From contig JBBTWD010000002.1 of assembly GCA_038062915.1 (NCBI GenBank), positions 5,189-69,188 on the forward strand: DNA of 64,000 nt, given 5' to 3'. The stretch is from Patescibacteria group bacterium (GTDB lineage Bacteria; Patescibacteriota; Microgenomatia; UBA8517). The translations under genes were made by a program, and so were the position numbers. Positions 8,463 to 63,761 of the stretch are shown in pieces. The notes beneath the pieces were generated by a model. The model was not told the origin of the DNA and searched no databases. It was given only the letters and a program-made list of their open reading frames with translations. The stretch's first letter is position 1. Every line of letters starts with the position of its first letter.

Positions 8463-10429
8463 ATTTTGATTTTGATTTCCTTGTCAGTTGTGAGGAAGAA
8501 CTCTTCTTCAAATTTACCTAAATTAATTGTATAAAGAGGGCCATCAGTTCCTGGTTGTTTTTGGATTAAAATATTATAGCTTTTACTAAATTTCATAGGA
8601 AGTCGATATTTAAAAGTAACTTTAACTACCCCCTCGGGTCGCAGTTTATATAAACCTGCAAAAACAGTTTTACCTAAATCTTCATAGGATTGGGCTTTAT
8701 CTTCTAACCCTGTAGCCTCAATAAGCTCACTGCCTTTAGGTACATAAACCCTGACCCAACTTGGAAGTACAGAATTAAGCCAACCGTCGTGCTTTTCCGG
8801 ATTATTATAGGTAAGTGTAATGGTTTTAACAATACCTCCACCCTTTTCTATCTCAATCTCCTGGCCCACCTCGTGCTTTACATATAAATTTGATTTTCTG
8901 CCACCCAAATTCGAGTCGTTTATATGAAGATAGTCACCCTGATATTCCTCGATTTTACCTGCAATTCCAAAATCACTTACAGCTTTTTGAACTTTTTCAT
9001 CAAATAGGTAAAACAGAACATGTTTCTCGGTAACAGATTTATATGCCGCCCCAAATAACGCTGGTAATTTTTCTTTAGGTTGACCCAGAGCATTGGCTAG
9101 TACCGAATTCATTAAGGGTCCGATAATTTTTTTACGGTTGTCATAATTTGGAGGTGTAAAGACAATTTTGCCAGACACAGGATCCCAAACAATGGGTCCT
9201 TCGGTATCTGCAAAGCTCTCAAGCTCGTAAATTACTTGAGGGCAATTACATTTGGGCTCAACTAGCGTGCTAAAATTCCCAAATCCAGGGACGCCAATAG
9301 GTCCGATTGCGTTTAATAAATTAACAAGAAGCTGGGTATCTACTCCGATTATTCCATCAAACTCTTCAATCCCCACACTTTTAGCTTCCTGACTAAAAAG
9401 CTTCATACTCTCCTCAAAATCGGGGGACCAATTCATATCTCTCAAGCGCCAATTTTTCGAAAGAACGTAAGGACCCTTAATATAAGCGATGATAGGGTCG
9501 GGTGCTGGGATATTTGGTTTGTATTTTGCATCCAAATTATAAATATCATTAGAAGAAACTGGCTCGAATTTTGCATTTTCTACTTTTGTAACTGAATATG
9601 CTGTAAGAAATCCTCCGGTGGGACGAAGTTCTTTATCATTCTGGAAAAGGACCAGATATTTACGTGGTCCATCAATCCCTAAAATGTACGGGGCTATTTC
9701 TAAAAGTGGTTTGCCTTCAGTCACAAAGTCCGTTCCCTGATCAATGAAGAATTGAGCTTTAATAATAATTTTCTTAATTTCTTTTCCTTTGAATTTGTCC
9801 GGATATCTTTCAGGGTCAATTTCGTCAATTTCTGTTTTTACTATCTTAAGTTTTGACGAGATCTCATCAAGCTTAGGTATGATGTCAGGGATTGCTTTAA
9901 CTATAAAATCGATTCTCTCTTGTGTTGTTTTTGCTCCATCTACTTCTGATGTATATCCTAAAACGTCAGCGTACGGTAGCGCAGTTGTGACAACAATGTC
10001 AAAAGCGTCAAGGCCAGCATCGCCCGCCTTTATAATATGGCCCAAGTCTTTAGTGTAACCACCTAAAAAGGGTATTATTCTAGTCCAAGAAAAAATAAAA
10101 TAGCTCGTTCTAACCCTGCTTAAGTCTTTTTTAACATTTGGAATTTCATTTTTAACTGCAGATAAATTCCCAGTATCAGCAAGAGTGGCAAGTTTTTGGG
10201 ATGAAACTAACAAATTTTGTCCACTTTGATAAACAAAAAAAGCAGGAATAATAATTCCTAAAAGGAGAATACCTAAAACTACAGCAATAACTTGTAGAGT
10301 TTTTTTTGAAACTCTGGGTTTAACCTCAAGTTCTGGTTGAGGTTGAGGGCTACTTCCTAAATCAATTTTCGGAATTAAGACAGATTCTTCCATACTTATA
10401 AATATAATATCACACTGCTCCCTTACCAC
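8459..10429 (-). CDS. DUF4012-like membrane-anchored extracytoplasmic protein
   Basis: N-terminal TM helix; QNDKELRPTGGF motif recalled as the DUF4012 signature. The family is often linked to LCP and capsule loci. Confidence 0.45.
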   Translation of the reverse strand: MVREQCDIIFISMEESVLIPKIDLGSSPQPQPELEVKPRVSKKTLQVIAVVLGILLLGIIIPAFFVYQSGQNLLVSSQKLATLADTGNLSAVKNEIPNVKKDLSRVRTSYFIFSWTRIIPFLGGYTKDLGHIIKAGDAGLDAFDIVVTTALPYADVLGYTSEVDGAKTTQERIDFIVKAIPDIIPKLDEISSKLKIVKTEIDEIDPERYPDKFKGKEIKKIIIKAQFFIDQGTDFVTEGKPLLEIAPYILGIDGPRKYLVLFQNDKELRPTGGFLTAYSVTKVENAKFEPVSSNDIYNLDAKYKPNIPAPDPIIAYIKGPYVLSKNWRLRDMNWSPDFEESMKLFSQEAKSVGIEEFDGIIGVDTQLLVNLLNAIGPIGVPGFGNFSTLVEPKCNCPQVIYELESFADTEGPIVWDPVSGKIVFTPPNYDNRKKIIGPLMNSVLANALGQPKEKLPALFGAAYKSVTEKHVLFYLFDEKVQKAVSDFGIAGKIEEYQGDYLHINDSNLGGRKSNLYVKHEVGQEIEIEKGGGIVKTITLTYNNPEKHDGWLNSVLPSWVRVYVPKGSELIEATGLEDKAQSYEDLGKTVFAGLYKLRPEGVVKVTFKYRLPMKFSKSYNILIQKQPGTDGPLYTINLGKFEEEFFLTTDKEIKIKI

Positions 10430-11060
10430 TTATCATTATAAATGGAGTTTTGACTATTATTAGGATATCTAAAAGTAGAGATTTTTTTCTAGCGTAGTAT
10501 GCATCCATTTCGATTCGCTTATCAAAATTGATCTCACTTCTTCCTGAAACTTGCCAAAAACCCGTAACTCCGGGTTTGACAGTCTGCGTTTCTTTAATAG
10601 ACCCCTCTGTACCAGGATATTGCATTTTCTGCTCTGTAAGCTCATCGGCATGATAAGGTCTTGGCCCCACAAGGCTCATCTCACCCCTTAAAACGTTAAA
10701 AAGTTGCGGCATCTCATCAATAGAATACTTTCTCATAAATTTACCAAATCTTGTAACTCTTGGGTCATTGTGCAATTTAAAACTAGATTTCTTATACTCT
10801 TTATAAAGTTTTTTAAATCGTGGGTCCTTTGTTATCAACCGATCCGAATTAACCGGCATTGATCGAAATTTATACAACCTAAATATTTTGCCATCCTTCC
10901 CAATCCTTCTCATATGGGCATTGTTCTTTTCTACAAGCACAGGACCAGGAGCGGTCAACTTTGTTATCATCGAAGCCACAAGCATTACAGGAGAAAATAA
11001 AACAATTAAAAAAATCGAGGATAAAATATCTATTATTCTTTTAACTATTTCGTAGTACAT
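10410..11060 (-). CDS. Polyprenyl-phosphate sugar-1-phosphate transferase (Bac_transf family, WbaP/CpsE-like initiating enzyme)
   Basis: KRIIDILSSIFLIVLFSPVMLV...GKDGKIFRLYKFRSM...DEMPQLFNVLRGEMSLVGPRP. Confidence 0.85.
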   Translation of the reverse strand: MYYEIVKRIIDILSSIFLIVLFSPVMLVASMITKLTAPGPVLVEKNNAHMRRIGKDGKIFRLYKFRSMPVNSDRLITKDPRFKKLYKEYKKSSFKLHNDPRVTRFGKFMRKYSIDEMPQLFNVLRGEMSLVGPRPYHADELTEQKMQYPGTEGSIKETQTVKPGVTGFWQVSGRSEINFDKRIEMDAYYARKKSLLLDILIIVKTPFIMISGKGAV

Positions 11061-11061
11061 T

Positions 11062-12204
11062 TTATAGAAGCTCTTTTCTGTTTTCCTCTTTTAGTTTTTC
11101 AACTATTTTCTTAACACTTTGTGCGCGACTTTTGGTTGTTACCAACAGTGCGTCTTCGGTATCGACTATAACGAGATTGTCCACGTCAACTACTGCAATG
11201 AGCCTTCTATCTGTATATATCAAAGCGTCAGTTGTGTCGATATTTATAACTTCAGCTTTATTTTCTTCTTTAGTTATTATCACATTGCCACCATGATCCT
11301 TTGGGATATTTTCCCAAACTTCTTTCCAATCACCTATATCAGTCCATCCATAATCAGCAATTGCCATAATAAAATTCTTGGCTTTTTCGCTTACCGCATA
11401 ATCAACTGATATGTCAGGTAAGTCCTCATATACAGATTTTGTCGTTTCTGATTCATTTTTTTGCCCTAAAGCATCGGCTATTTTCTGCATGCCATTTGCT
11501 ATTTTAGGAGCGTGTAGATTCAAGGCATTAAGGAAACTCTGTGCTCCCCAAACATATTGATTGGCATTCCAAAAATATTTTCCTGATTGCAAATATTCCT
11601 TTGCAACACTCAATTCTGGCTTTTCTGTAAACCCTTCTAATTTAAATATATGTTTACCGTCGGATTCACTTAATTTGTCTCCCAATTTAATATACCCGTA
11701 ACCAACATTTGGATATGTCGGTTTAATACCAATAGCCAACAATAAATCCTTTTCATATACTGCCCCAGCACAGGAAAGTAAATTTTTTAAATACTCTCTT
11801 TGGGGGTCAACTAGATGATCCGCTGCTTCGTTTAGAATAACTGCCTTAGAATCTTTTTTTAAAATATAGACAGCTCCTAGCGCGTGCGCAGCCGCAGTAT
11901 TTCTTTTCATCGGTTCAACAATAATATTTTCGGCTAGAAATTCGGGTACCTCATCTATAATTTCTTTTTTATATTGGCTAGAAGTCGTCACTGCAAAAAT
12001 TTTCTCCCAGGGAAGAATTTTGTTAAAACGATACGAAGTGATCTGGGTTAAAGTTTTATTATCAAAAAGCTTTAAAAATTGTTTTGGAGAGTTAACTCTT
12101 GAAACCGGCCATAGACGCGTTCCGCCACCCCCAACCACCAACAAAGCGAATAAGTGCTTTTTGTAGTCGTCTCTTGAAAACTTCTTTAGAAAATTTTTGA
12201 GCAT
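11062..12204 (-). CDS. manC: Mannose-1-phosphate guanylyltransferase (GDP-mannose pyrophosphorylase)
   Basis: LVVGGGGTRLWPVSR...PKQF N-terminus. The annotated ATG overlaps the upstream ORF by 113 nt; an internal TTG/GTG start at LLVV is possible. Confidence 0.8.
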   Translation of the reverse strand: MLKNFLKKFSRDDYKKHLFALLVVGGGGTRLWPVSRVNSPKQFLKLFDNKTLTQITSYRFNKILPWEKIFAVTTSSQYKKEIIDEVPEFLAENIIVEPMKRNTAAAHALGAVYILKKDSKAVILNEAADHLVDPQREYLKNLLSCAGAVYEKDLLLAIGIKPTYPNVGYGYIKLGDKLSESDGKHIFKLEGFTEKPELSVAKEYLQSGKYFWNANQYVWGAQSFLNALNLHAPKIANGMQKIADALGQKNESETTKSVYEDLPDISVDYAVSEKAKNFIMAIADYGWTDIGDWKEVWENIPKDHGGNVIITKEENKAEVINIDTTDALIYTDRRLIAVVDVDNLVIVDTEDALLVTTKSRAQSVKKIVEKLKEENRKELL

Positions 12205-12640
12205 TGGCTATTAGCGTTCTTCTATTAAAGCTCATTTTATCAAACTTTTCAATTGCACGAGTCAAACTCTCTTCATTTTGTTCATCAAATAAAATCCCAG
12301 TCTGATTATCTATAACAGTGTCAAGAGCTCCGCCTTTCTTGTGTGCAATTACTGGAACACCCAAGCTCTGTGCTTCAACTGCAACAATTCCAAAATCCTC
12401 CTCTTGTGGCATTATCAAAGCTTTGGCATTTTTATAATAATCTATTAATACTTCATCGCTAACTTGACCAACAAATTTAATATTGCTATATGCCATATGC
12501 TTTAAGCTATATGTACGACTTCCAGTGCCAATAATTACTAGTTTTTTATTTAGTTTATTAAAAGTTTTAACCAAAAGTTCAACTTTTTTATAATTTACCA
12601 GTCGACCCACATATAAATAATACTCTTTCAGGTTTTGCAT
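12092..12640 (-). CDS. GT4 glycosyltransferase, C-terminal (Glycos_transf_1) half only
   Basis: YYLYVGRLVNYKKVELLV...EDFGIVAVEAQSLGVPVIA. No N-domain; overlaps the N-half ORF by 13 nt in another frame. Confidence 0.6.
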   Translation of the reverse strand: MQNLKEYYLYVGRLVNYKKVELLVKTFNKLNKKLVIIGTGSRTYSLKHMAYSNIKFVGQVSDEVLIDYYKNAKALIMPQEEDFGIVAVEAQSLGVPVIAHKKGGALDTVIDNQTGILFDEQNEESLTRAIEKFDKMSFNRRTLIANAQKFSKEVFKRRLQKALIRFVGGWGWRNASMAGFKS

Positions 12641-13182
12641 GATGGAAATATTACTTCAGAATCTCGATCGTAATATTTTTTAATTCTTCTTTTTACTTCA
12701 GTTGATATTGCAATTATTTTATCAGGACGAGTAGACGCAATTTTGTCCCAAGCTCTCAGATAGTTGATAACTGGTTTTGAAATAAACCGCAAAATCGGAT
12801 TTTTAAAATACAAATCATAATGACTCCATAAATAACGAGTAGGTGTCAACATGTAGCAAATGTGTTTTGTACCCGGTTTTGTAATAATTCCTTTTGCCGC
12901 CTCACTAGTAACCGAAATTGCCAAATCATACTCATTAAAATTAAATTGCTCAAAAGCTAGGGGCATTAGCCATCCCAATCCCTCATGCCAACTTTTGGCA
13001 AAAGGAATTTTTTGTATAAATGAAGTGTGGATTTTGGGGAAAATCTTTGCCCAAGCCGCATTTTTTTGATCATAAACAGAAGTATAAAGTGGTGCGTCAG
13101 GGAACATTTCATGGAGAGTTAAAAGTACCCTCTCCGCCCCACCCCACTTATTTACCCTGTCATACACAATAGCCGTTTTCAT
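12628..13182 (-). CDS. GT4 glycosyltransferase, N-terminal (Glyco_trans_4-like) half only
   Basis: IVYDRVNKWGGAERVLLTLHEMF...; ends ...SEVIFPSCKT immediately before the YYLYVGRL of the next ORF. Confidence 0.6.
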   Translation of the reverse strand: MKTAIVYDRVNKWGGAERVLLTLHEMFPDAPLYTSVYDQKNAAWAKIFPKIHTSFIQKIPFAKSWHEGLGWLMPLAFEQFNFNEYDLAISVTSEAAKGIITKPGTKHICYMLTPTRYLWSHYDLYFKNPILRFISKPVINYLRAWDKIASTRPDKIIAISTEVKRRIKKYYDRDSEVIFPSCKT

Positions 13183-13249: not shown

Positions 13250-13660
13250 ATGAGAAGATATAAATTTCTACTTAAAGAGGAAGTGTTTGAGGCTTTAAAT
13301 AAGTTAAGGGCTGCGTTTTTGGCAGCAAAAGATGGCAATGAAGTTGAAGAAATCATAAGAGGAATACTAACCAGCGACGAAAGAATTAAAATCGGAAGAA
13401 GAATTTTGATTTCTCAACTTCTAGATGAAGGGCTTACTTTTGAAGCTATTAGTAAAGATTATAGAATCGGGAAGCAAACTGCACTCCAAGTGCAAAAATT
13501 AAAAGATAGATACCCAAAGTGCTTTGAATTAATTAGTCAAAGGGTGGAAAAGGTAGAAATAGAATTTGGTAAAAAAGCTTATATTAAAACAGGTAATCCC
13601 AAATATCTCAAAAAATTTATTGAGTATACAGGGTTTAAAAGAACAGATGTTAAAAGGTAG
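13250..13660 (+). CDS. Small helix-turn-helix protein, TrpR/YerC-YecD-like
   Basis: 136 aa; the pattern DERIKIGRRILISQLLDEGLTFEAISKDYRIGKQTALQVQK resembles the Trp-repressor-like fold family; the only plus-strand gene in a minus-strand block. Confidence 0.5.
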   Translation: MRRYKFLLKEEVFEALNKLRAAFLAAKDGNEVEEIIRGILTSDERIKIGRRILISQLLDEGLTFEAISKDYRIGKQTALQVQKLKDRYPKCFELISQRVEKVEIEFGKKAYIKTGNPKYLKKFIEYTGFKRTDVKR

Positions 13661-13666: not shown

Positions 13667-13686
13667 TCCGTGTACTAGTACACGGA
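13667..13686 (+). terminator. Perfect 20-bp palindrome tccgtgtactagtacacgga followed by TTTTT; intrinsic terminator and/or second operator copy
   Basis: Read directly from the sequence; it overlaps the stop codon of the convergent GT4 C-half ORF. Confidence 0.45.
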
Positions 13687-14187
13687 TTTTTCATAAACAT
13701 TTAACGTTTCTTTGACCATTTTGTGCCAGCTGTAGCGCTTGACGAATTTTTGAGCGTAGGTGATTTTAGATTTTCTCTCGAATTCAGACAAATTTAGTGC
13801 CATCTTTAAAACCTTTATAATTGAATTTGAATCAAGCGGATTAAAATATATAGCTGCATTTTTGTAAACTTCTCGGAATACTGGAATATCACTACATAAA
13901 ACCAGGGTCCCTGCTTTCATCGCTTCAATTCCAGGAAGTCCAAAACCTTCTGAAAGAGACGGAAACACAAAAGCAATTGAATTTTTATAAAGACTTTTAA
14001 GTTTGTTATCTGGTACAAATCCCAAAAGTTTTACGTATTTGTTTTTATTTACTTCGAGTCTTTTAGTGAATACATCTCTACTTGAAGCTATACATAAATT
14101 TACCTTTAGTAAATTAATTGCACTAATTAATCTATCAAGGTTTTTATGTGGATAGGCACTACCCACATATAAAAAATAACTATTCAT
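13675..14187 (-). CDS. GT4 glycosyltransferase, C-terminal half only
   Basis: YFLYVGSAYPHKNLDRLISAIN...FPSLSEGFGLPGIEAMKAGTLVLCS; overlaps the N-half ORF by 8 nt. Confidence 0.6.
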   Translation of the reverse strand: MNSYFLYVGSAYPHKNLDRLISAINLLKVNLCIASSRDVFTKRLEVNKNKYVKLLGFVPDNKLKSLYKNSIAFVFPSLSEGFGLPGIEAMKAGTLVLCSDIPVFREVYKNAAIYFNPLDSNSIIKVLKMALNLSEFERKSKITYAQKFVKRYSWHKMVKETLNVYEKSVY

Positions 14188-14698
14188 ATATTACCTCCAC
14201 TTTTTCATTTTTTATTTTGTAACAGTTAACTAGTTCGTTTTTAATGACACTACTTGGAACTATTATTCTGACCGAACCCATAACAGCTTTTGCAAATGAT
14301 ATGTAATAACCAAGTCGCCAAATTTGGTAAATAGGAAACGGTCTGGTTGTGGCCTCCCCGCCAATAAACTTATGCATAATAAGATCATGAATTGTTACAA
14401 TAAATCTTCCAAAGTAAAAAAGTGGTACGTTGAAATGGGGAAAGTGAACAATATCTGGTTTATATTTTGAGATAAGAAAAGGAAGATAAAGTTGCTCTGA
14501 AAAACTATAATGTCTAAAATCTGCTTTAACTTTTTGCCAACTTTTAGGTAAATTTATACCAAGTTTATCTTTTCTTAGCAATATTACATATTTATTCACT
14601 TTGTCAATTTTTGCCAGATTTTCTACTAAATTCATTGTATATCTACCGTTGCCTGCATGTTCTGGGCCGTAAATTCTGGCGTCGATCAATATTTTCAA
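14180..14698 (-). CDS. GT4 glycosyltransferase, N-terminal half only
   Basis: MKILIDARIYGPEHAGNGRYTMNLVENL... GT-B N-domain; ends ...KVEVIYE. Confidence 0.6.
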   Translation of the reverse strand: MKILIDARIYGPEHAGNGRYTMNLVENLAKIDKVNKYVILLRKDKLGINLPKSWQKVKADFRHYSFSEQLYLPFLISKYKPDIVHFPHFNVPLFYFGRFIVTIHDLIMHKFIGGEATTRPFPIYQIWRLGYYISFAKAVMGSVRIIVPSSVIKNELVNCYKIKNEKVEVIYE

Positions 14699-15567
14699 TG
14701 AAGTATGGTTCTAACAAAACGACCCAATTTCAATAACTTTATTCCAGTTAAAACAAGAAGATTTATAGGTAACGGGTAACGTTTCCATAGAAACTTCTTG
14801 TAAAAAATTTCCATTGAATTAACTGAAGCCATCCGAAACTTTAGACGTGAAGTTAGTGGGACTTTTTTCTTTGTTTCATTTTTTCCTTTAGAAGCTCCTT
14901 TAAGATGAAGTATGGAAACTTTTGGAAAGTAATAAATTTTATAACCCTTTTCTTTAATTTTCCAACAAAGATCAATATCCTCTCCATCAAGAAAATATTC
15001 TTCAGAAAACCAGTTAACTTCATCTAAAATTTTCTTACGCGTTAGAAAAAATGCCCCCTGGATAACTTCCACTTCGTGTGTCAAATTTTCATTTACATCC
15101 CTATACCAATATAATTTGCCGTTCCCCAAAATCAACCTATTAAAGGAAATCAAAGGTGTAGGAAATCTCCGTCTTGAATCGGGATCCAGCTTCCCATTAA
15201 CCAAAACTGTTTTACAAGTCACAGCCCCAATGTTTTTATTGCTGTTTAAATATTTGATCGTTTCTCTAATTGTGTTTTTATATACAACTGTATCGGAATT
15301 AAGAAAAAGGATGTTTTTGCCCATGGCGACTTTTCTTGCAGCGTTATTACCCTTAGCAAATCCCAGGTTATCATCGTTTTTAATAAGCTTGACGTTTGAG
15401 AAATCGCTTTCAACCATTTCAATACTTCCGTCAATTGAACCATTATCGGCAACAATAACCTCAAATAAAGCCTCACCCTTTACCTTTTTTAATGAATTAA
15501 GACAATCACGAAGAAGGTCTTTTGTATTAAAACTAAGAATTATTATTGAGAGTTCGAGTTTGTTCAT
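14695..15567 (-). CDS. GT2 family glycosyltransferase
   Basis: LSIIILSFNTKDLL...VIVADNGSIDGS...LFLNSDTVV (DXD). Confidence 0.85.
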   Translation of the reverse strand: MNKLELSIIILSFNTKDLLRDCLNSLKKVKGEALFEVIVADNGSIDGSIEMVESDFSNVKLIKNDDNLGFAKGNNAARKVAMGKNILFLNSDTVVYKNTIRETIKYLNSNKNIGAVTCKTVLVNGKLDPDSRRRFPTPLISFNRLILGNGKLYWYRDVNENLTHEVEVIQGAFFLTRKKILDEVNWFSEEYFLDGEDIDLCWKIKEKGYKIYYFPKVSILHLKGASKGKNETKKKVPLTSRLKFRMASVNSMEIFYKKFLWKRYPLPINLLVLTGIKLLKLGRFVRTILH

Positions 15568-22518: not shown

Positions 22519-22570
22519 GATCTGATTATATCTCGTTGACAGGTTATCTGAAACAAGAATATTATGTATT

Positions 22571-51166: not shown

Positions 51167-51182
51167 ATATTATAGAGGAAAT

Positions 51183-57011: not shown

Positions 57012-58054
57012 TTTATAATTCTATATAAAACATCAAAAAACCAGCTTTGAATAGGATGTGGAGATCGGGAATTTATAACCTTCCAGCTTTTTGGGATCGG
57101 GTAATTTTCTTTCCTAATGAATTGATTGTCTGAAACTCTTGATCTTATCCACTGTTTTGTGTAAAAAAAACTTTTTGTTATTCTTTCTATCTCTTGAAGA
57201 TAATTTTTTATTTGAGGCCTTCTCATCTCATGTAGAGAGCTAATATTGACTATCAAATCAACATAATTTTTGGGCAACAAATGTATTTGATTGGCCATTA
57301 AAAATCGTATTCTACTAGCCTTAAATTCTTTCTCAATTTTATTAAATGATTCAAATTTTCTGTAATAAAAAATCTTTTCGTTAGGAAAAACTTTAGATAA
57401 GTACCACTGTGACACAAAAAGAGCTGGGGGGATGTCTATCACGGTATAATTTATTTTTCTCATAAACTTAAGAAATATATATGCCGTTCTACCATATCCT
57501 GCACCCAATTCAGCAACTTCCTTCACTGTATTTTTGTCAATTTGATCCATAATGGTGTAAAACTCATACACAGAATTGCAAAGATCTTGTGAAATAGTTT
57601 TACCTTTATAAAATATGGTAAAGGGATTGCCGACAGTCGGTTCTTTAATTTTTTCAAAAATATTTAAGTGATCAAATTTAGAAACAAAATCAAATAAACA
57701 CGCGACATAAATTTTATAAAAATAGGCAAAAATTGGATGAAACTTTTTTATTCCGTCTTGCTTTTGAGCAAAATCATTAAATTCAACTGAAGTAAACGGC
57801 TTTAGGTTAACTTTTAAAATCTGTGAGACTATAACAGGAAATTCATGAATATAGATTCCAAAAATATTCCAGCCAAAACCAAAATATTTTCCATTTATAG
57901 ACCGCTTAAAATTCTTAAGGCCCGATTTATTAATTTGATTATTATGCACCATATTAAGACCTTCCCAAAAACTAGATGGGTGAAAGATTTTAGGGCTAGA
58001 TTTTAAATCACTTAACATTTCGTTTAAACCTATGCCTTTTAGCTTGTCATTCAT
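57008..58054 (-). CDS. Putative sugar O-methyltransferase (class I SAM-MTase)
   Basis: N-terminal FHPSSFWE; motif I VAELGAGYGRTAY; size and pattern recalled from the 'putative sugar O-methyltransferase' family. Confidence 0.45.
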   Translation of the reverse strand: MNDKLKGIGLNEMLSDLKSSPKIFHPSSFWEGLNMVHNNQINKSGLKNFKRSINGKYFGFGWNIFGIYIHEFPVIVSQILKVNLKPFTSVEFNDFAQKQDGIKKFHPIFAYFYKIYVACLFDFVSKFDHLNIFEKIKEPTVGNPFTIFYKGKTISQDLCNSVYEFYTIMDQIDKNTVKEVAELGAGYGRTAYIFLKFMRKINYTVIDIPPALFVSQWYLSKVFPNEKIFYYRKFESFNKIEKEFKASRIRFLMANQIHLLPKNYVDLIVNISSLHEMRRPQIKNYLQEIERITKSFFYTKQWIRSRVSDNQFIRKENYPIPKSWKVINSRSPHPIQSWFFDVLYRIIK

Positions 58055-58083: not shown

Positions 58084-58842
58084 ATGCCCAAAATGATGAA
58101 TAGAAACAAAAAAATATTTGCAATACTAATTTCGTATAACGCCGAAAAGACCTTGGAAAAATTTTATAAAAACTTTCCTAAACATTTATTTAGTAAGATC
58201 ATTCTAGTTGATGATGCATCGCATGATAGAACTTACTATCTAGCCAAAAAACTTGGCATCAAATCATATCGAAATCCGAAAAATTTAGGCTATGGTGGAA
58301 ATATGAAAAGGGCAATGTCTATTGGCCTTAAATTGGGCGGAGATGTTTTGGTTGATATCCACCCAGATGGAGAATATAAGCCATCTGCAATAGTACCCGC
58401 ATTAAAAAAGATTGAGAAGGGTGCTTTACTTGTATTGGGTAACAGATTCCATTCATCTAATGATCCCCTCAAAAGCGGTATGTATGTTTGGAAATATTTT
58501 CCCATTAAAATCTTGAATTTTATTAGCCGGCTAATTCTAGGATTAAAAATCAATGATTATCATCAAGGATTTAGGGTCTATACCAGAGAATTGCTGAATA
58601 AAATTAATTATGGGGATGATTCGACTGGATTCCTTTTTAGTTTTGAATTAATAGCTCAAGCTGCATTTTGGAAAATTTCAGTAGCACAGGTTCCTGTTGA
58701 TACAAAATATACGGGTAAAAAAAGAGGTGCTACTCTTAAAAAGAGTATCGCTTACTCTTTAGAAATCTTTTGGGTATTACTACTTTATATACTTGCTAAA
58801 ATCGGACTAAAAAATAAAATATTCCTCAAACCAAACTCTTAA
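58084..58842 (+). CDS. GT2 polyprenyl-phosphate hexose synthase-like (Dpm1/GtrB-like)
   Basis: FAILISYNAEKTLEKF...ILVDDASHDRT...C-terminal TM helix. Confidence 0.7.
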   Translation: MPKMMNRNKKIFAILISYNAEKTLEKFYKNFPKHLFSKIILVDDASHDRTYYLAKKLGIKSYRNPKNLGYGGNMKRAMSIGLKLGGDVLVDIHPDGEYKPSAIVPALKKIEKGALLVLGNRFHSSNDPLKSGMYVWKYFPIKILNFISRLILGLKINDYHQGFRVYTRELLNKINYGDDSTGFLFSFELIAQAAFWKISVAQVPVDTKYTGKKRGATLKKSIAYSLEIFWVLLLYILAKIGLKNKIFLKPNS

Positions 58843-59950
58843 TTAAAATTAAACTCTGTCTTATTGATTTTCCCCAGGTAAACTTCTTACTCCAGGAAAT
58901 TGCATTTTTTGACATCCTTTCCCAAGATTTGGAATCTTTGCATAATTTTATTGCATTTTCCGCCAAGCTTTTAAAGTCCCCCAATGGAGACAGTAAACCA
59001 GTTTTTTCATTAACCACAGAGTCCTTGATACCAGAAACAAGGTAACCAATCGCTGGGGTACCAACAGAATTTGCCTCAATGTTAACTAGTCCCCATCCTT
59101 CTCTTATCGAGGGATTTATAAAAACATGGGCGCCAGATAAAAGTTCAAACTTTTTTTTGTCATTAACATATCCCCAAAATTTTATATCTTCACTTATATT
59201 TAATTTATTACTAATGGTTTTAAGTTCAGTTAAATAATTTTTAGTCCCCCAGCCCACTACCCAAAACTGCCATCCAGCTTCTTTAATGTTTATTAAACTA
59301 AAGGCCTTGAGGGCATCTTCTATCCCCTTATCTTTTGCTAGGGCACCTAAAAAAATGGCCGTTTTTCTTGTCTGCCTATTTCGATCAACTTTGATTGGAT
59401 TGACACCGTTATAAACTATCTTTATATTCTCTTTTGGCACACCCCAATTTACTAAATCTGTTTTTGTTGACTCGGAAACTGTCATAAATGGAATGTTTTT
59501 ATATAAAAAATTAAACATTATTGGTTCAAAAACAGTGCCAATAATTCCTGGTATATAATTTAATGGCCTTGGCCAAGGGTTAAACCACCAAACTTCTTTA
59601 GCCACTTCGTGAATAAGGGCAAGTTTTTTTGTCCTTACATAGATTGGAGTAAAAAATGGAATCCCATGAAATTCATCGACAACTAAATCATATTTGGGAT
59701 GTTTGTTAAATAAATACCAATAAAACGCTTTAATTTTAACCCCAAAGACATCTCCCCCTTTTCGTATTATTTCGACGCCATCAATAAACTCAGTTTCTTT
59801 CGCATTCTTAAAATACGATGTGAAGAGTGTAACTTTATTACCAGCCTTAACCCACCCTTTTGCATGCTCAAAGGTGGCAATTTCAGCGCCACCAGACAAG
59901 GGATGTTTTAGTCCCCTCCATGAAAATATTAAAATCTTTAGTTTTCTCAT
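58826..59950 (-). CDS. GT4 family glycosyltransferase
   Basis: REGWGLVNIEANSVGTPAIGYLVSGIKD. Confidence 0.85.
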   Translation of the reverse strand: MRKLKILIFSWRGLKHPLSGGAEIATFEHAKGWVKAGNKVTLFTSYFKNAKETEFIDGVEIIRKGGDVFGVKIKAFYWYLFNKHPKYDLVVDEFHGIPFFTPIYVRTKKLALIHEVAKEVWWFNPWPRPLNYIPGIIGTVFEPIMFNFLYKNIPFMTVSESTKTDLVNWGVPKENIKIVYNGVNPIKVDRNRQTRKTAIFLGALAKDKGIEDALKAFSLINIKEAGWQFWVVGWGTKNYLTELKTISNKLNISEDIKFWGYVNDKKKFELLSGAHVFINPSIREGWGLVNIEANSVGTPAIGYLVSGIKDSVVNEKTGLLSPLGDFKSLAENAIKLCKDSKSWERMSKNAISWSKKFTWGKSIRQSLILIKSLV

Positions 59951-59969
59951 GTCCCTTAATAATTCCTAA

Positions 59970-59977: not shown

Positions 59978-59994
59978 AGCCTAGATAACAGTAA

Positions 59995-61752
59995 ATGAAA
60001 AATTTTCTTTCTGCAAACAGGGCATGGATTCTTGTTTTAGCGCTTGCCTTTCTTTTGCGGACTATTGGGATACATCTAAATCCAGTTGGCCTAAGCCACG
60101 ATGACGAGCTTAATGAATTAATCAACGCTAAATCACTTGCCATAGCCGGAGTTCACGCTCCTGGCCATGTAGCAGGAGTATTTACTCCTAACGATGAATG
60201 CCCGGGTAACTGTATTCACGGAGAACTGGGTCCATTTATTCTTATTCCTTGGATGAGAATTTTTCCCCTAGATATATTTTGGTCAAAAATACCATTCATT
60301 GCAGTAGCGTCGCTTATCGTTTTCTCAACTGGTAAACTCTTCGAAAATCTATCTAAAAATCGCGCTATTGGTCTATTTGTAGGTACTCTTGTCGCAATCA
60401 ATCCATGGGCAATACACTTTGGAAGAACTGCCTATTTTACAACATTTTCATATGCTTTTTATCTTTTAGCTGCATATTTTTTTACACGGAAAAAGTCCTA
60501 TAGGGCCAATCTTTTTTACGGCGCATTGCTCTCCATAATTGCCTCTCTTTTCTACTTTGGTACCAAACCAATCCTTCCATTAATTATTATCTGGGGGATT
60601 TGCTACAATCTTTTCCAATTTAAAAAACATTATCTAAAGTTTACGGCTTTAATTATTTCCCTGACTTTAATTGCAATTGTTACATACTCCATAATACTTT
60701 CAAATTCATTTGCTGGAAGACGTATTGGTGAAATAAATATCGAAAATACAGCAACAATTGTAAACCAACAAAGGCGAGTCTCACTTGAAATTCCGTTAGT
60801 AAGGGATTTATTTATCAATAAATATATTGTGCATGTCGGGATTAGAATTGAGAAATTTATTGGTTTTTTCTCGCCAACATTTTTATATGTAAAAAGCGAA
60901 GGTAGTACTGATCTTTATTATGATTCTAACCACGCTTATAATTATTTAGCCGATTTTGCATTTTTGATATTTGGGGTAATGGCACTTGCCACCAGCTTTC
61001 CAACCGCCATTTTTGTATTGTCCCTGCTTTTAATATCGGTCGTCCCCGCCGCCATAAAGATTACGGGAGATACTATTTACACACTTCGAGCTGGGCTTGC
61101 ATATCCAATACTGACAGGAGTTTCTGGCTGGGGAATCTATTATCTATTTATAAAGTTTTCTGGCTGGTCAAGAAAAATAGTTATCTTTGTGATTATCCTA
61201 ATTTACACCGTCTCACTTAGTTACTTCTTAACTATGTATTGGTATAGAACCCCATTTGATAAAAGTATGGGCTGGTATTTTCATAAGCGGGCAGTGGCAA
61301 ATTACATTACAAGAATTAGAGAAAAAAGTGATAAAAAAATAATAGTTGTTACAGCCCAACCCGCCGACACCTTTAATGAGTATGTATTTTTTGGCGATCT
61401 TTATAACACCAAGGCTGATATTTTAGATGTTAATAAGGTCTATGATTCACAAAAATACGAATATAAAAATACCAAATTTGTAAATAACTGTGATGAACTT
61501 ACCCAAAAAGAAATAATAAGTGGATCGATCATTTTCATCGAACAAGGCGTTGACTGTCTTATTAATCAAAAGGGTACTGCAAAAATTGCAAATCCAAGGG
61601 ATGGAGGGGGAATATATGATATTGTTAATGAAAATCTGTGTGCCGGCTATCCTAAAGCAAGATTTCCTTATCCTCGAAAAATTTCTGACTTCAGTATCGA
61701 AAGATTATCCGACAGCGAGTTTTGCAAACTGTGGATCACTAACCCCGATTAA
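59995..61752 (+). CDS. GT-C glycosyltransferase, PMT/ArnT (GT39/GT83)-like
   Basis: About 12 TM helices; LSHDDELNEL acidic motif in the first extracytoplasmic loop; about 150-aa C-terminal soluble domain. Confidence 0.5.
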   Translation: MKNFLSANRAWILVLALAFLLRTIGIHLNPVGLSHDDELNELINAKSLAIAGVHAPGHVAGVFTPNDECPGNCIHGELGPFILIPWMRIFPLDIFWSKIPFIAVASLIVFSTGKLFENLSKNRAIGLFVGTLVAINPWAIHFGRTAYFTTFSYAFYLLAAYFFTRKKSYRANLFYGALLSIIASLFYFGTKPILPLIIIWGICYNLFQFKKHYLKFTALIISLTLIAIVTYSIILSNSFAGRRIGEINIENTATIVNQQRRVSLEIPLVRDLFINKYIVHVGIRIEKFIGFFSPTFLYVKSEGSTDLYYDSNHAYNYLADFAFLIFGVMALATSFPTAIFVLSLLLISVVPAAIKITGDTIYTLRAGLAYPILTGVSGWGIYYLFIKFSGWSRKIVIFVIILIYTVSLSYFLTMYWYRTPFDKSMGWYFHKRAVANYITRIREKSDKKIIVVTAQPADTFNEYVFFGDLYNTKADILDVNKVYDSQKYEYKNTKFVNNCDELTQKEIISGSIIFIEQGVDCLINQKGTAKIANPRDGGGIYDIVNENLCAGYPKARFPYPRKISDFSIERLSDSEFCKLWITNPD

Positions 61753-62539
61753 TCCAGTTTTTTTTGTTCGAATAACTGTAAAAGCGCAATATTTTGAGTC
61801 TATAAAAAACTGCTAGAGTGTCGATAAATGTAAACCAGATTGTTCTTACAAACCCTTTATTGATAATGGTAGATGTACCAAAATCCATTTTTAGTTCTAT
61901 TGGGGCCTCAAATATTCTACCAAAACCCAGGGACCTGGCAACAGAAAGCATTTCTATATCAAAAGCAAATTCTTTGACGAGAAGTCTCGGTAAAATTTTT
62001 TCTACGACCTCTCTTCTAAAAAATTTCATACCCACTTGAGTGTCTCTCACATTCAACCCAAAAAGAACCTTGACCATTATTTGATAGCCAAAGGACAAAA
62101 TTTTTCTTTGCCACGGGTAAACGACTTTAGAGGCGGGATGTCTCTTTGAACCGATGATAATATCTGCGCCGTACCACTCAAAATGTTCTAGAAGCATTGA
62201 GATACTGTTTGGGTCAATATCAAGACCTTCATCTACAAAACCCACAATCTGCCCCTTGGCTTTCGACATACCAAACCTAACAGCCTCTCCCTTGCCACGA
62301 TTTTGTAGGTAGCCAACAATTCTAATTTGTTTAGGAAATCTCCTAGCTATCTTATTGGCTTTTTTAAATGTTCCGTCAACCTCGATACCGTCTATAACAC
62401 AAATAATTTCATAATTGTACCTTATCTCATCTAAAACTTTCTTGATCTTAAGAAGACTCTTGGCAATAGATTTTTCTGCCCTATAGGCTGGAATTACGAT
62501 TGAGACTACTTTTACTAAAGTTGTAGGTTTCATATCCAA
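61739..62539 (-). CDS. GT2 polyprenyl-phosphate hexose synthase-like (Dpm1/GtrB-like)
   Basis: VVSIVIPAYRAEKSI...IICVIDGIEVDGT...GFVDEGLDIDP. Confidence 0.75.
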   Translation of the reverse strand: MDMKPTTLVKVVSIVIPAYRAEKSIAKSLLKIKKVLDEIRYNYEIICVIDGIEVDGTFKKANKIARRFPKQIRIVGYLQNRGKGEAVRFGMSKAKGQIVGFVDEGLDIDPNSISMLLEHFEWYGADIIIGSKRHPASKVVYPWQRKILSFGYQIMVKVLFGLNVRDTQVGMKFFRREVVEKILPRLLVKEFAFDIEMLSVARSLGFGRIFEAPIELKMDFGTSTIINKGFVRTIWFTFIDTLAVFYRLKILRFYSYSNKKNWINRG

Positions 62540-63761
62540 AGTATATTAACAAACTAACTAGCAAAAGAATAGCTGAAAGCAAGGAAACTTTAATTATAGT
62601 AAGTATAGAATCATGAAAGATAAAAATTCCAATTATCTGAAAAATTGAGAAAATAAGCGGTAAAATTACAACCTTTACTTTATTTATAGACAGGTAAAAT
62701 GAACAAATTAAACTAGTTAGACTATAAATTGCAGCGAAAAGACCAAACCAAATTAGATATTTATCTCCCCCCAAAAATCCATTGCCATAAAGTGTTTTTA
62801 TAGCAACGTCTGGTAAAAACTTATAAAAAACCAGTACAACTATTGAAGCTACAAAAGTCAAAAGTAAACTAACAAAAAAAATGCCCAAATACTTTTGACC
62901 CCTTGAGAATTTTTTTGATATCATGGGAAACATAACGGCACCGATTGGAGCAGTTCCAAAAAGTATTATTCTGCCCAATGTCGAAAGTGAAGCATATATA
63001 CCAGCATCATGTGGACCAATAAAATGTTTTGCCAATAGAATATCTGTGGTTAAAAACGATGTTGAGGTTAATGAAAAAATAAAAGCCGGTAATGTGTATG
63101 AAAATATTTCTCTGTTAATGTTAATTTTTTTATCTTTGGAAAAAAATGTATAACCCTTCAAAAAATATAGAGTAATAAAAAAACCAATTATTCCAGAAAT
63201 AACTATTCCCAAAACTGCGCCAAAAACAGAAAATCCTAAATAAACCAAAAGTACTCCCAAAATTAATCTTAATAGCAATTCAACATTTAAAGAAACCACC
63301 ATTTGATTAAATTTTAAGATACCTTGAAGAAACGCTCTTAAAACTAAAGATAGCAATGAGAAAAATAAAAAAAACGGAACTACGAATATGCTTTTCAGTT
63401 CGACGTTCAAAAATCTAGAAAATACAGGTGAGAGAATTAAAGTTAAAACAAGAAGGGTGGAAGCTATTGCAAAACTTTTTCGGTTAAACCAAGAGAAAAT
63501 GTAATTTTCTTCGTTTTTACTTTTAGCACTAGACGCAAACTTTATAACTACCATGCTTAAAAATGTAAATATTGCAGAGAACATGGTGGCCAGTGAAATT
63601 ACCGCAGCAAGTTCCCCATAATGAATGGGTCCCAAGAGCCTTCCTATGATAAGGTGGTAAACAAATGCCAAAAAGTTAGCAAAATTACTGCCTATTACCA
63701 TGACTGCGCTACTTGTAAAAAATGGATGGGAGGTTATGTATTTAATTTTTTTCATCATCAT
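62481..63761 (-). CDS. wzx: Wzx-type flippase (MOP superfamily), second copy
   Basis: About 12 TM helices; Polysacc_synt-like N-terminus; overlaps the downstream GT2 by 59 nt. Confidence 0.7.
   Translation of the reverse strand: MMMKKIKYITSHPFFTSSAVMVIGSNFANFLAFVYHLIIGRLLGPIHYGELAAVISLATMFSAIFTFLSMVVIKFASSAKSKNEENYIFSWFNRKSFAIASTLLVLTLILSPVFSRFLNVELKSIFVVPFFLFFSLLSLVLRAFLQGILKFNQMVVSLNVELLLRLILGVLLVYLGFSVFGAVLGIVISGIIGFFITLYFLKGYTFFSKDKKININREIFSYTLPAFIFSLTSTSFLTTDILLAKHFIGPHDAGIYASLSTLGRIILFGTAPIGAVMFPMISKKFSRGQKYLGIFFVSLLLTFVASIVVLVFYKFLPDVAIKTLYGNGFLGGDKYLIWFGLFAAIYSLTSLICSFYLSINKVKVVILPLIFSIFQIIGIFIFHDSILTIIKVSLLSAILLLVSLLIYFGYETYNFSKSSLNRNSSL

Follow-up and report, generated by a model that had tools for sequence, protein, structure and literature searches.

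What kind of envelope glycan would be built by a gene island in which nearly every gene belongs to glycan assembly, and on which side of the membrane would its sugars be added? The question is raised by a chromosomal island of at least 53-59 kb in a tiny-genome Patescibacteria/CPR bacterium, a Microgenomates-like MAG from Hainich groundwater. The window, i.e., the whole stretch of 64,000 nucleotides that was analysed, was annotated by Pfam and NCBIfam profile searches, and transmembrane (TM) segments were assigned by hydropathy. Genes given with coordinates below are on the minus strand unless marked (+).

The region 10410-63761 contained 49 tightly packed ORFs, of which 42 were on the minus strand and many overlapped. 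Its coding density was approximately 100%, with a sole gap of more than 100 bp (22519-22793). This arrangement suggests co-transcription, and the packing and glycan gene density are far beyond chance. The initial annotation had called this region uninterrupted; 46 of the 49 ORFs indeed received a glycan-related assignment, whereas three did not, and the locus runs past 63761. These three were a small Trp-repressor-like HTH protein that may be a regulator (13250-13660, +; Trp_repressor 3.3e-7), a 170-aa protein with an N-terminal TM that had no Pfam or NCBIfam match (20335-20847), and a 107-aa protein with four TM segments predicted by hydropathy (36221-36544), for which a 104-aa ortholog occupies the same position in L008. 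The last protein matched no Pfam or NCBIfam model even at E<=10, GtrA and SMR models included, and is a candidate small flippase or partner subunit. On the right side, the window cuts through another GT-C gene, a Mannosyl_trans2/PIG-V-like one, whose 3' end (63777-64000) was recognised by translation. L002 contains it as a full 381-aa gene with PF04188, followed by a GT4, a GT2, and a PMT_2 gene; the island is thereby extended by at least 5.7 kb, and the two further GT-C genes beyond the window end bring the whole island to at least ten.

The cytoplasmic assembly, export, sugar-nucleotide, and modification genes matched the inventory of the initial annotation almost item for item. An initiating phosphoglycosyltransferase of the small Bac_transf type was encoded at 10410-11060 (2.9e-59). 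Ten GT4 enzymes were counted, eight of which were intact: 15577-16776 (Glyco_trans_1_4 7.1e-17, Glyco_transf_4 8.6e-12) and, with Glycos_transf_1 matches, 21379-22518 (2.3e-34), 22794-23852 (8.8e-26), 25890-26774 (6.8e-23), 46148-47353 (2.1e-27), 51111-52355 (+; 7.3e-13), 52342-53448 (9.5e-33), and 58826-59950 (1.4e-33). The other two were split into N- and C-terminal halves. In the first, the C-terminal half (12092-12640; Glycos_transf_1 4.4e-33) was an identical ORF in independent assemblies, and the N-terminal half (12628-13182; Glyco_transf_4 2e-4, below cutoff) complemented it in position and length. The second (C-terminal half 13675-14187, Glycos_transf_1 1.2e-24; N-terminal half 14180-14698, Glyco_transf_4 2.5e-11) was also split in L039. 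Both splits fell at the domain linker with no sequence lost and were stable across independent assemblies. Eleven GT2 enzymes were found, including three Dpm1/GtrB-like proteins described below and a GT2-methyltransferase fusion (40721-42250; Glycos_transf_2 2e-23, Methyltransf_11 3.6e-14). The others, all with Glycos_transf_2 matches, were 14695-15567 (3.1e-22), 19430-20371 (3.3e-26) and 49243-50268 (3e-17), both with a C-terminal TM, 25192-25893 (4.2e-22), 29989-30864 (8e-10), 42268-43308 (2.2e-19), and 53469-54305 (2.5e-26). Export was represented by two Wzx-type MOP flippases (30834-32105, Polysacc_synt 1.1e-22; 62481-63761, 2.6e-20) and a Wzy_C polytopic protein of the polymerase, ligase, or O-oligosaccharyltransferase type (18124-19455; 1.6e-11, about 10 TM). 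Neither a chain-length regulator (Wzz/PCP) nor an ABC exporter was detected among the genes of the window.

Four genes for sugar-nucleotide enzymes were detected: a ManC-like mannose-1-phosphate guanylyltransferase (11062-12204; NTP_transferase 1.7e-33, ManC_GMP_beta-helix 5.7e-17), a GDP-L-fucose synthase (Fcl)-like epimerase/reductase (54310-55245; GDPFucSynFcl 2.4e-89, below the curated cutoff), an RmlD-like NDP-4-keto-sugar reductase (44609-45553; RmlD_sub_bind 5.8e-41), and a second RmlD-like reductase (50234-51166; 1e-42). Gmd and RmlA-C were absent from the window, so that the sugar pathways are incomplete locally. Besides the fusion, the six methyltransferases comprised three SAM methyltransferases (27491-28144, Methyltransf_23 1.3e-15; 40051-40737, Methyltransf_11 8.8e-17; 45529-46161, Methyltransf_11 3.3e-14), a TylC3-type NDP-sugar C-methyltransferase with Zn-binding, methyltransferase, and C-terminal domains (43366-44640, +; Methyltransf_14 3.3e-30, Methyltransf_13 5.3e-14), and a NanM-type sugar O-methyltransferase (57008-58054; TIGR04371 3e-43, above cutoff). 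A left-handed beta-helix acyl/acetyltransferase (20844-21401; Hexapep 1.4e-17) and an AsnB-like glutamine amidotransferase (28175-29992, +; Asn_synthase 3e-92, GATase_7 2.6e-41) were also present, the latter without a match in the syntenic relative L008.

Eight polytopic proteins had been called GT-C-like, and each contained 7-13 hydrophobic segments. Pfam assignment, set beforehand as the test of this call, placed one of the eight above threshold in a GT-C family, whereas the remaining seven fell short and were recovered through paralogs, alignment of profiles, Pfam scans of whole families, and AlphaFold models, all of which indicated GT-C. This evidence from sequence and models supports GT-C identity for all eight, of which five are PMT_2-like and three AftD/MmpA-like. 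The protein above threshold was 36537-40070 (1177 aa; GT-C_AftD 6e-17, above the gathering score), which also carried DUF5667 (3.9e-11) and a C-terminal TM. Its 633-aa paralog 47338-49239 (33% identity over 564 aa, E 5.7e-70) reached GT-C_AftD at 0.005. The 903-aa protein 32066-34777 joins an AftD/MmpA-like GT-C membrane domain to a sizeable extracytoplasmic part and a TM at the C terminus; it partially matched NCBIfam MmpA (1e-10) and was aligned with those two proteins by hhalign (95.4% over 338 columns). MmpA itself has no known catalytic activity and no recognised catalytic motif (PMC8698533).

Among the others, 16773-18140 (455 aa, about 9 TM) matched PMT_2 below cutoff (3.8e-4) and AZOBR_p60025 (3.6e-6), and was linked by hhalign to the 59995-61752 family (92.8% over 309 columns). 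The 481-aa PMT_2/GT39-like protein 34779-36224 (+) had orthologs at 50-64% identity with PF13231, one of them named GT family 39; D30-D31 was conserved at >=95% in its 118-sequence family, which hhalign related to that of 23849-25210 (96.4%). The 585-aa PMT-like protein 59995-61752 (+) had 81 homologs, the most distant of which carried PMT or PMT_2, and D37-E38 after TM1 was invariant. Two confident AlphaFold models gave Pmt4, STT3, PglB, ArnT, and AftA/D as best PDB matches. For 23849-25210 (453 aa; PMT_2 match in 55 of 83 family members), the model (pLDDT 95.5) had STT3, ArnT, DPY19, AftA, PglB, and ALG9 as top Foldseek PDB matches. For 55242-57011 (589 aa), which belongs to a rare family without a Pfam model, only GT-Cs were among the top matches, the best being Pmt4, Pmt2, STT3/STT3B, and PglB, which are protein-glycosylating enzymes. 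Acidic loop-1 residues were conserved across the GT-C families.

The three Dpm1/GtrB-like GT2 proteins are predicted polyprenyl-phosphate sugar synthases. The first (26802-27494; no TM, AglJ 8.3e-37, PpgS 2.3e-25) had Pyrococcus DPMS 5mlz as its top PDB sequence match (2.9e-17), followed by ArnC and GtrB. The second (58084-58842, +) matched PpgS (1.7e-16), AglJ (9.3e-15), and dolichyl-phosphate hexose transferase (3.1e-11), and the third (61739-62539) matched PgfS (5.9e-13) and ArnC (2.3e-11). The GT-C 23849-25210 lies near the first synthase, and the GT-C 59995-61752, the third synthase, and the Wzx 62481-63761 are neighbours; such clusters of GT-A, GT-C, and flippase genes are as in characterised systems (PMC8035078). 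GT-C enzymes with Dpm1/GtrB-type synthases and Wzx flippases beside them are what defines extracytoplasmic glycosylation from lipid-linked monosaccharides, in agreement with the proposal made from the initial annotation.

At the left end, the gene of a DUF4012 protein (8459-10429; 656 aa, one N-terminal TM, 5.2e-21) lies directly downstream of the phosphoglycosyltransferase gene. It overlaps that gene by 20 nt and probably belongs to the locus as its last gene. The island had been described as next to dcw and LCP genes, and MraZ, MraW, a PBP-like ORF, and an LCP (LytR-CpsA-Psr) gene (5017-6033, +; 3.1e-30, N-terminal TM at about residue 8) do flank it; however, the unrelated genes RecO, ZIP, and exonuclease intervene between the LCP gene and the island, so that this link is positional only. 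The LCP protein is a candidate ligase of a glycopolymer to peptidoglycan.

Gene order was compared across relatives as the initial annotation had advised. The island was largely syntenic in GCA_034680565.1 over at least 44.5 kb, with orthologs 43-87% identical, and partially syntenic in GCA_040960095.1, where one flank was replaced. The 59995-61752 GT-C and the AsnB-like gene had no match in GCA_034680565.1; such differences in gene content are typical of surface-glycan loci. The 59995-61752 family was widespread in Microgenomates (30 GTDB species loci), often as a stand-alone gene, and in 6 of these 30 loci several GT-C genes were arrayed together with a Dpm1-like gene. Gene families, GT-C fold or homology, gene order, and conservation in relatives are what the analysis shows.

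Taken together, we consider it somewhat probable that the island is a chromosomal envelope glycan super-locus in which one or more Wzx/Wzy glycopolymers are elaborated extracytoplasmically, with attachment to peptidoglycan by LCP as a possible last step. The donors, the acceptor, the step order, and the LCP attachment are those that family membership would predict. The phosphoglycosyltransferase would begin a lipid-linked oligosaccharide on undecaprenyl phosphate at the cytoplasmic side, and the GT4 and soluble GT2 enzymes would lengthen it. The ManC, Fcl, and RmlD-like enzymes would supply the sugars, to which O- or C-methyl groups, acetyl groups, and possibly amides would be added. The products would be flipped by the two Wzx proteins and polymerised or ligated by the Wzy_C protein. 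Meanwhile, the three Dpm1/GtrB-like enzymes would load single sugars onto polyprenyl phosphate, and these donors would be flipped by Wzx or the 4-TM protein as candidates. The eight GT-Cs of the window, and those beyond it, would then move the sugars to the exported glycan, forming branches or whole domains outside. The parts for both cytoplasmic assembly and extracytoplasmic elaboration are all present and contiguous. The MmpA resemblance of 32066-34777, the lack of Wzz/PCP or an ABC exporter in the window, the locally incomplete sugar pathways, the 4-TM protein without a GtrA/SMR match, the positional LCP link, and the protein-glycosylating structural matches of 55242-57011 tell against this mechanism, as does the possibility that the genes serve several separate glycans instead of a single pathway.

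Proteins as the main acceptors are an unlikely explanation, although one that deserves weight. PMT-like GT-Cs would O-glycosylate Ser/Thr of secreted proteins (S-layer proteins, pilins, large adhesins) from polyprenyl-phosphate sugars, cf. the actinobacterial Ppm1/Pmt system, and the Wzy_C protein, as a PglL/PilO-type O-oligosaccharyltransferase, would move the Wzx-flipped oligosaccharide onto proteins. Wzy_C domains occur in O-oligosaccharyltransferases too, and the structural matches of 55242-57011 fit protein acceptors equally well. The invariant D-E pair of 59995-61752 and its PMT-matching distant homologs also favour this reading, and the conservation of its family, often stand-alone, across Microgenomates is as expected of a housekeeping protein mannosyltransferase. 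Type IV pili are abundant on CPR cells, which also bear S-layer-like lattices (PMC7906910), and pilin O-glycosylation is a prediction in Saccharibacteria (PMC11623550). However, a search for nearby acceptor genes, as initially suggested, found no S-layer, pilin, or other candidate in the window, and no window protein reached the PMT (PF02366) model. Furthermore, the three AftD/MmpA-like GT-Cs belong to a family known from polysaccharide synthesis, and the LCP and DUF4012 neighbours indicate a polymer.

A membrane-anchored lipoglycan extended outside by GT-Cs without LCP attachment, cf. lipomannan/lipoarabinomannan or a glycosylated lipoteichoic-acid-like polymer, appears improbable. The combination of Dpm1-like synthases with AftD-like and PMT_2-like GT-Cs does resemble the logic of mycobacterial LM/LAM. 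In Firmicutes, LTA is glycosylated by GT-Cs of the PMT_2 or YfhO type (PMC8035078), and the LCP gene stands apart from the island; but the window contained no recognisable LtaS, PimA/B-like, or lipid-anchor-specific genes, and Bac_transf, Wzx, and Wzy_C together indicate an undecaprenyl-diphosphate-linked repeat-unit route. We likewise give little credence to a patchwork of independent, partly decaying loci in which some GT-C paralogs are non-catalytic, MmpA-like scaffold or transport proteins and the count overstates a single system. The two Wzx genes, the halved GT4 genes, the unmatched genes and replaced flank in the relatives, and the MmpA match without a recognised catalytic motif (PMC8698533) are consistent with it, whereas the coding density, shared strand, and overlaps, the acidic loop-1 residues kept across families, the orthologs retained over at least 44 kb, and the clean, stable GT4 splits argue against it.

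Since CPR cells are monoderm and carry a surface layer (PMC7906910), the preferred peptidoglycan-linked polymer is plausible. The GT-C density, proposed as far beyond typical, is so in comparison with O-antigen and capsule clusters, although other CPR genomes also contain arrays of several GT-C genes, of smaller size. Since the mycobacterial arabinogalactan cluster also groups several GT-C genes, as these CPR loci do, the island is extreme but not unique. In line with the suggestion that it may be undescribed for this lineage, no description of such a locus in CPR/Patescibacteria was found in the literature. The island is an enlarged form of multi-component glycosylation systems that are already known; with at least eight outside-acting, sugar-adding membrane enzymes, it would provide this bacterium with an unusually large version of known envelope glycosylation machinery.

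The window contained 59 ORFs, which were listed with their hydropathy and all scanned with Pfam, selected ones being searched in NCBIfam as well; there were 49 ORFs between 10410 and 63761, 42 of them on the minus strand, at a coding density of approximately 100%. The sole gap of more than 100 bp was 22519-22793 (275 bp), where promoter and terminator consensus matches were not commoner than in shuffled sequence. Only a Trp-repressor-like HTH gene (13250-13660), a 170-aa protein (20335-20847) with nothing useful in Pfam at E ≤ 10, and a 107-aa four-TM protein (36221-36544) lacked a glycan assignment; thus, the glycan density claimed in the initial annotation was borne out by 46 of the 49 ORFs. 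However, the island does not end at 63761 as had been proposed. It runs past the window with a Mannosyl_trans2 (PIG-V-like GT-C) gene, whose end lies at 63777, and beyond this gene the same MAG (locus L002, 1-5680) encodes a GT4, a GT2, a 516-aa PMT_2 protein, and one further ORF. The island size of at least 53-59 kb is a lower bound, as the sequence examined ends inside the island on the right.

The core of a Wzx/Wzy pathway was present in full, namely the phosphoglycosyltransferase (10410-11060; Bac_transf, 2.9e-59), two Wzx proteins (Polysacc_synt), and one Wzy_C protein (1.6e-11); no family match for the chain-length regulator Wzz/PCP was obtained with any of the 59 ORFs. Ten GT4 enzymes, two of them encoded as N-half and C-half ORFs, and eleven GT2 enzymes, one fused to a methyltransferase, were found, and about 31 genes of the island concern glycosyl transfer. 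The sugar-nucleotide enzymes were ManC (Pfam), Fcl, whose best NCBIfam match was GDP-L-fucose synthase (2.4e-89, under the equivalog cutoff), and two RmlD-like reductases. Modification enzymes comprised six methyltransferase domains, including a NanM-type sugar O-methyltransferase (above the cutoff) and a TylC3-type C-methyltransferase architecture, together with a hexapeptide acyltransferase and an AsnB-like amidotransferase. The inventory drawn up earlier was therefore essentially correct, and its GT2 and GT4 calls held in Pfam. The methyltransferase at 40051-40737 shared 48% identity with the methyltransferase domain of the adjoining GT2 fusion (40721-42250), suggesting a local duplication. 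Gmd and RmlA/B/C were not found in the window, though Fcl and the two RmlD-like reductases are encoded there; the missing steps of nucleotide-sugar synthesis must be encoded in another part of the genome, unless these pathways draw on other 4-keto intermediates, perhaps in conjunction with the C-methyltransferase at 43366-44640.

The left flank (1-10429) begins with a PBP-like ORF that is truncated by the window edge and carries SxxK, SxN, and KTG motifs in its translation, followed by genes for MraW, MraZ, HisRS, LCP (5017-6033, plus strand), an RNase-H-like exonuclease, a weak Bro-N match, a ZIP transporter, RecO, and DUF4012 (8459-10429). The location next to dcw and LCP genes was thus as initially described. 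The RNase-H-like exonuclease and weak Bro-N gene (6065-7131) lie between LCP and ZIP, and homologs of the Bro-N-like protein (33-63% identity) also occur near g57 homologs in two other Patescibacteria (CPR) loci (L009 and L028). A mobile island or recent transfer was rejected, because no tRNA gene was found in the window, no integrase or transposase family was detected among the ORFs by Pfam, and the GC content of the island (31-37%) was only slightly lower than that of the flank (34-39%).

The two split GT4 genes (12628-13182/12092-12640 and 14180-14698/13675-14187) are broken at the inter-domain linker, and their half-ORFs overlap by 13 and 8 nt with no sequence lost. The same split ORFs were observed in independent assemblies of several samples (loci L039-L042), indicating that the splits are real in the population; assembly errors were rejected on this ground. 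They represent either two-subunit GT-B enzymes or fixed frameshifts. The HTH gene, the sole regulator-like gene of the island, lies on the opposite strand between both split pairs.

Eight polytopic proteins had been called GT-C-like, and all eight showed 7-13 hydrophobic segments by hydropathy. With Pfam alone this call was nearly refuted, since only g38 (36537-40070) passed a GT-C model (GT-C_AftD, 6e-17). Matches of g20 (16773-18140; PMT_2, 3.8e-4) and g46 (47338-49239; AftD, 0.005) were under the threshold, and the other five had no GT-C family match in Pfam, with nothing useful at E ≤ 10 either. Deeper tests were positive for the other seven. Firstly, g46 was a clear paralog of g38 (33% identity over 564 aa, E 5.7e-70), the only pair found by phmmer among the polytopic proteins of the window (the eight candidates, two Wzx, and Wzy_C). 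In addition, g35 (32066-34777) had a partial NCBIfam match to MmpA (1e-10) and was aligned with the g38/g46 pair by hhalign (95.4% over 338 columns). For MmpA/Rv0226c, an alignment with the membrane portion of AftD and the lack of a recognised catalytic motif have been reported (PMC8698533); g35 may be non-catalytic.

The remaining proteins were placed mainly through their families. The g36 (34779-36224) family, with members in Woese-, Davies-, and Blackburnbacteria, comprised over 300 proteins; orthologs with 50-64% identity carried PF13231, and one of them was named GT family 39; the g36 family profile was aligned by hhalign (96.4%) with the g27 (23849-25210) family, in which 55 of 83 members matched PMT_2. 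Among the 81 homologs of g57 (59995-61752), those at the greatest distance matched PMT or PMT_2, and g20 was aligned with the g57 family (hhalign, 92.8% over 309 columns). The g53 (55242-57011) family consists of 24 known sequences without an existing model in profile libraries. Neither g38 as a single query nor the g53, g57, or g27 family profiles had a meaningful match in PDB sequence searches, and only fold comparison worked. The AF2 models of g53 and g27 were helical bundles: that of g27 (pLDDT 95.5) matched STT3, ArnT (TM-score 0.64), DPY19, AftA, PglB, and ALG9 with Foldseek, and the best structural matches of g53 were yeast Pmt4 and Pmt2, STT3, and PglB.

Acidic residues in the first extracytoplasmic loop were present in all eight proteins and conserved across the families of g53, g57, g36, and g27. 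D30-D31 of g36, just after TM1, was kept in at least 95% of 118 sequences, D37-E38 of g57, after TM1, was invariant in 37 sequences, D34-D35 of g53 was invariant in 23 sequences, and E30 of g27 was nearly invariant. For the others, the residues were read from single sequences (g20, D33 and D41; g38, D44; g46, E31-E32; g35, D39). Taken together, paralogy, hhalign, family-wide Pfam matches, and AF2/Foldseek comparison support a GT-C fold or homology for all eight, as initially proposed, five of them being PMT_2-superfamily-like and three AftD/MmpA-like. The weakest cases are g20, placed by sub-threshold and single-sequence evidence, and the possibly non-catalytic g35. With the Mannosyl_trans2 and PMT_2 genes beyond the window, the island of this MAG contains at least 10 GT-C genes.

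The three GT2 proteins called Dpm1/GtrB-like were recognised as such by PDB sequence or NCBIfam matches, the latter all below equivalog cutoffs. The best PDB sequence match of g30 (26802-27494) was the Pyrococcus dolichol-phosphate mannose synthase 5mlz (2.9e-17), followed by ArnC and GtrB, and its NCBIfam matches were AglJ and PpgS; g55 (58084-58842) matched PpgS, AglJ, and dolichyl-phosphate hexose transferase, and g58 (61739-62539) matched PgfS and ArnC. Their presence in the same locus indirectly supports polyprenyl-phosphate sugars as putative donors of the GT-Cs. One of the two Wzx genes (62481-63761) adjoins g58. The four-TM protein, which Pfam did not assign to GtrA or SMR even when matches up to E = 10 were admitted, is encoded between PMT_2-like and AftD-like GT-C genes, and an ortholog of 104 aa (43% identity) occupies the same position in a relative (GCA_034680565.1, locus L008). 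It could be a flippase or a partner subunit of a GT-C.

The locus fits a Wzx/Wzy-type route joined with multi-component transmembrane glycosylation. Read from the gene families, folds, and gene order observed, the donors, acceptor, and order of steps would be as follows. The Bac_transf enzyme would prime undecaprenyl phosphate, and the GT4 and GT2 enzymes would extend the unit with sugars derived from GDP-mannose (ManC), 6-deoxyhexoses (Fcl and RmlD-like), and methylated, acetylated, or amidated derivatives. Wzx would then flip the unit, and the Wzy_C protein would polymerise or ligate it; a Wzy_C domain does not tell a polymerase from a ligase or an O-oligosaccharyltransferase. The Dpm1/GtrB-like enzymes would form polyprenyl-phosphate monosaccharides, which a flippase would export and from which the GT-Cs would add sugars to the polymer on the outer side of the membrane. 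As there are three synthases for at least 10 GT-Cs, several GT-Cs must share a donor, just as mycobacterial Emb/Aft enzymes use a common one, decaprenyl-phosphate arabinose.

The flanking LCP, DUF4012, and dcw genes, together with the monoderm, S-layer-bearing CPR envelope (PMC7906910), favor a peptidoglycan-linked heteropolysaccharide, presumably attached by LCP, as the most likely product, a view that we hold with modest confidence. The D-E motif of g57, the Pmt4/STT3/PglB-like top structural matches of g53, and the occurrence of Wzy_C domains also in O-oligosaccharyltransferases instead support protein O-glycosylation of S-layer proteins or pilins. We regard this acceptor as rather unlikely: no neighbouring acceptor gene (S-layer, pilin, etc.) was found in the window, and none of its proteins reached the PMT (GT39) model, which was matched only by distant homologs such as P0104, although the D-E motif is invariant. 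That the product is a lipoglycan instead of a wall-linked polymer appears very unlikely. The tight spacing of the genes, the conserved motifs, and GT4 splits that recur without loss of sequence speak against decay, and we give little credence to the view that the island is a mosaic of loci, independent of one another or partly decaying, that include non-catalytic paralogs. The peptidoglycan-linked polymer and these alternatives are not fully exclusive.

Three-component systems (GtrA/B/C, CsbB-GtcA-YfhO, GtlA-GtlB, GacI/J/K/L, and CsdAB/CD/EF; PMC8035078; PMC11127046) likewise combine a GT2 polyprenyl-phosphate sugar synthase, a flippase (GtrA/Wzx; a candidate role for Wzx here), and a GT-C with an acidic outer-loop motif, often in adjacent genes as in g57-g58-Wzx here, and have the monoderm envelope and LCP setting in common with the island. 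However, each decoration there has a single GT-C, and a genome has one to three such pairs, whereas three synthases are accompanied here by eight GT-Cs within the window (at least 10 in the island as a whole), and the island has no recognisable GtrA. Actinobacterial protein O-mannosylation (Ppm1 + Pmt, GT39) also pairs a Dpm1-like synthase with a PMT-like GT-C bearing a loop-1 D-E as in g57, and the g53 model is nearest to yeast Pmt4 and Pmt2; that system has one Pmt, whereas the island has many paralogs, none reaching the PMT Pfam model.

Mycobacterial arabinogalactan/LAM synthesis (AftA-D, EmbA/B/C, and MmpA) resembles the island in its clustered GT-C genes, in LCP attachment, which is presumed for the island, and in the large number of GT-Cs, which would use polyprenyl-phosphate monosaccharides for polymer synthesis outside the membrane; among the three AftD/MmpA-like GT-Cs, g35 and g38 combine a large extracytoplasmic region with a C-terminal TM segment. 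However, the UbiA PRTase and DprE1/DprE2 (decaprenyl-phosphate arabinose) and the galactan enzymes Glf and GlfT of that system were not found among the window proteins by Pfam. A D-arabinofuranose (AG-like) pathway in the window was rejected for want of UbiA/DprE genes, and the donors are probably hexoses from Dpm1-like enzymes, unlike the arabinose of mycobacteria. Export is by ABC transport in mycobacteria and would be by a Wzx/Wzy-type route in this unrelated lineage. The island is not a member of the arabinogalactan system; what they have in common is the AftD-type GT-C domain and the many-GT-C logic.

Wzx/Wzy secondary cell wall polysaccharide, capsule, and O-antigen loci are alike in the phosphoglycosyltransferase, GT4/GT2 sets, Wzx, Wzy_C, sugar-nucleotide and modification genes, and variable content. 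Such loci typically span 10-30 kb, whereas the island spans at least 53-59 kb, is denser in GT-C genes (eight in the window), and lacks a recognised Wzz/PCP, in agreement with the earlier view that its number of GT-C genes goes far beyond a typical cluster. It takes up a large share of a genome that, judged from the contigs of relatives (0.5-0.84 Mb), is of the ~1-Mb class.

Genes identical to those of the window occurred in ENA contigs named Hain_H41/H51_01um, which we read from the names as the 0.1-μm fraction of Hainich groundwater, a Patescibacteria-dominated habitat (PMC12960796). The suggested comparison of gene order showed that synteny of the island extends over at least 44.5 kb in GCA_034680565.1 (493-kb contig), with orthologs of g26 to g59 (43-87% identity), an extra Methyltransf_21 gene, and no blastp match to g57 or AsnB. 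Synteny was partial in GCA_040960095.1 (840-kb contig), which keeps g56-g57-g58-Wzx-Mannosyl_trans2-GT4-GT2 with four consecutive PMT/PMT_2 genes after it (L003, 13823-21758), and has different sugar genes (DegT, Epimerase_2, and Hexapep) on the other side of the block. Island content thus varies between relatives as is usual for surface-glycan loci. A Woesebacteria genome has a solitary g57 homolog (46% identity) surrounded by housekeeping genes. This stand-alone homolog in Woesebacteria GW2011 (L005/L006, 14805-16067) lies about 3 kb from HisRS, and HisRS of the window (3718-4980) is just outside the island, 55 kb from g57, with differing orientations; the HisRS vicinity could be an ancestral anchor for island expansion or a coincidence.

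A g57-family scan of GTDB species genomes gave 30 loci from Woese-, Shapiro-, Levy-, and Gottesmanbacteria and others, and in six of these, blastp against the window proteins revealed 3-6 GT-C-like ORFs in a stretch of at most 20 kb, usually accompanied by a Dpm1-like gene, indicating that multi-GT-C arrays are recurrent in CPR. The present island is the largest example among the loci examined. A search of GTDB genomes with the g38+g46 alignment found no related loci. Many GTDB records titled 'uncultured Gammaproteobacteria' (binchicken, SRP co-assemblies; loci L009, L013, L017, L018, L024-L026, L035, L036, and L038) encode Microgenomates-type GT-C proteins, and their titles look like placeholders or wrong taxonomy.

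As far as the literature was searchable, nothing specific on GT-C arrays or glycan islands in CPR was found, in line with the suggestion that the system may be undescribed for the lineage. No new mechanism is implied; all parts belong to known enzyme classes, and their functions would follow from homology. The island is set apart by its scale, with at least 53-59 kb and about 31 glycosyltransfer genes, its GT-C:synthase ratio, a GT-C family outside profile libraries, and its lineage. The whole genome of a Parcubacterium was reported to have 20 glycosyltransferases, fewer than this one island, and its envelope formation, like the structure and assembly of the CPR envelope, was called unclear (PMC5220378); glycosylation in cultivated Saccharibacteria was called unexplored (PMC11623550). 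The island offers a concrete, testable parts list for CPR envelope biology and a well-delimited lead, adds GT-C families missed by profile libraries, and carries AftD/MmpA-like enzymes far from Mycobacteriales. Such an outlay on surface glycans from a strongly reduced genome speaks for a central role of the glycan in the lifestyle, e.g. in host attachment, phage evasion, or survival outside the host. We tentatively propose, as a possibility rather than an expectation, that Microgenomates-type CPR make a major undescribed envelope glycoconjugate, an AG/LAM-like wall polymer or dense surface-protein glycosylation, built largely outside the membrane from few polyprenyl-phosphate sugars by a dozen or so GT-Cs, including model-less families such as that of g53, and that this variable island may set host attachment or phage susceptibility of the episymbionts.
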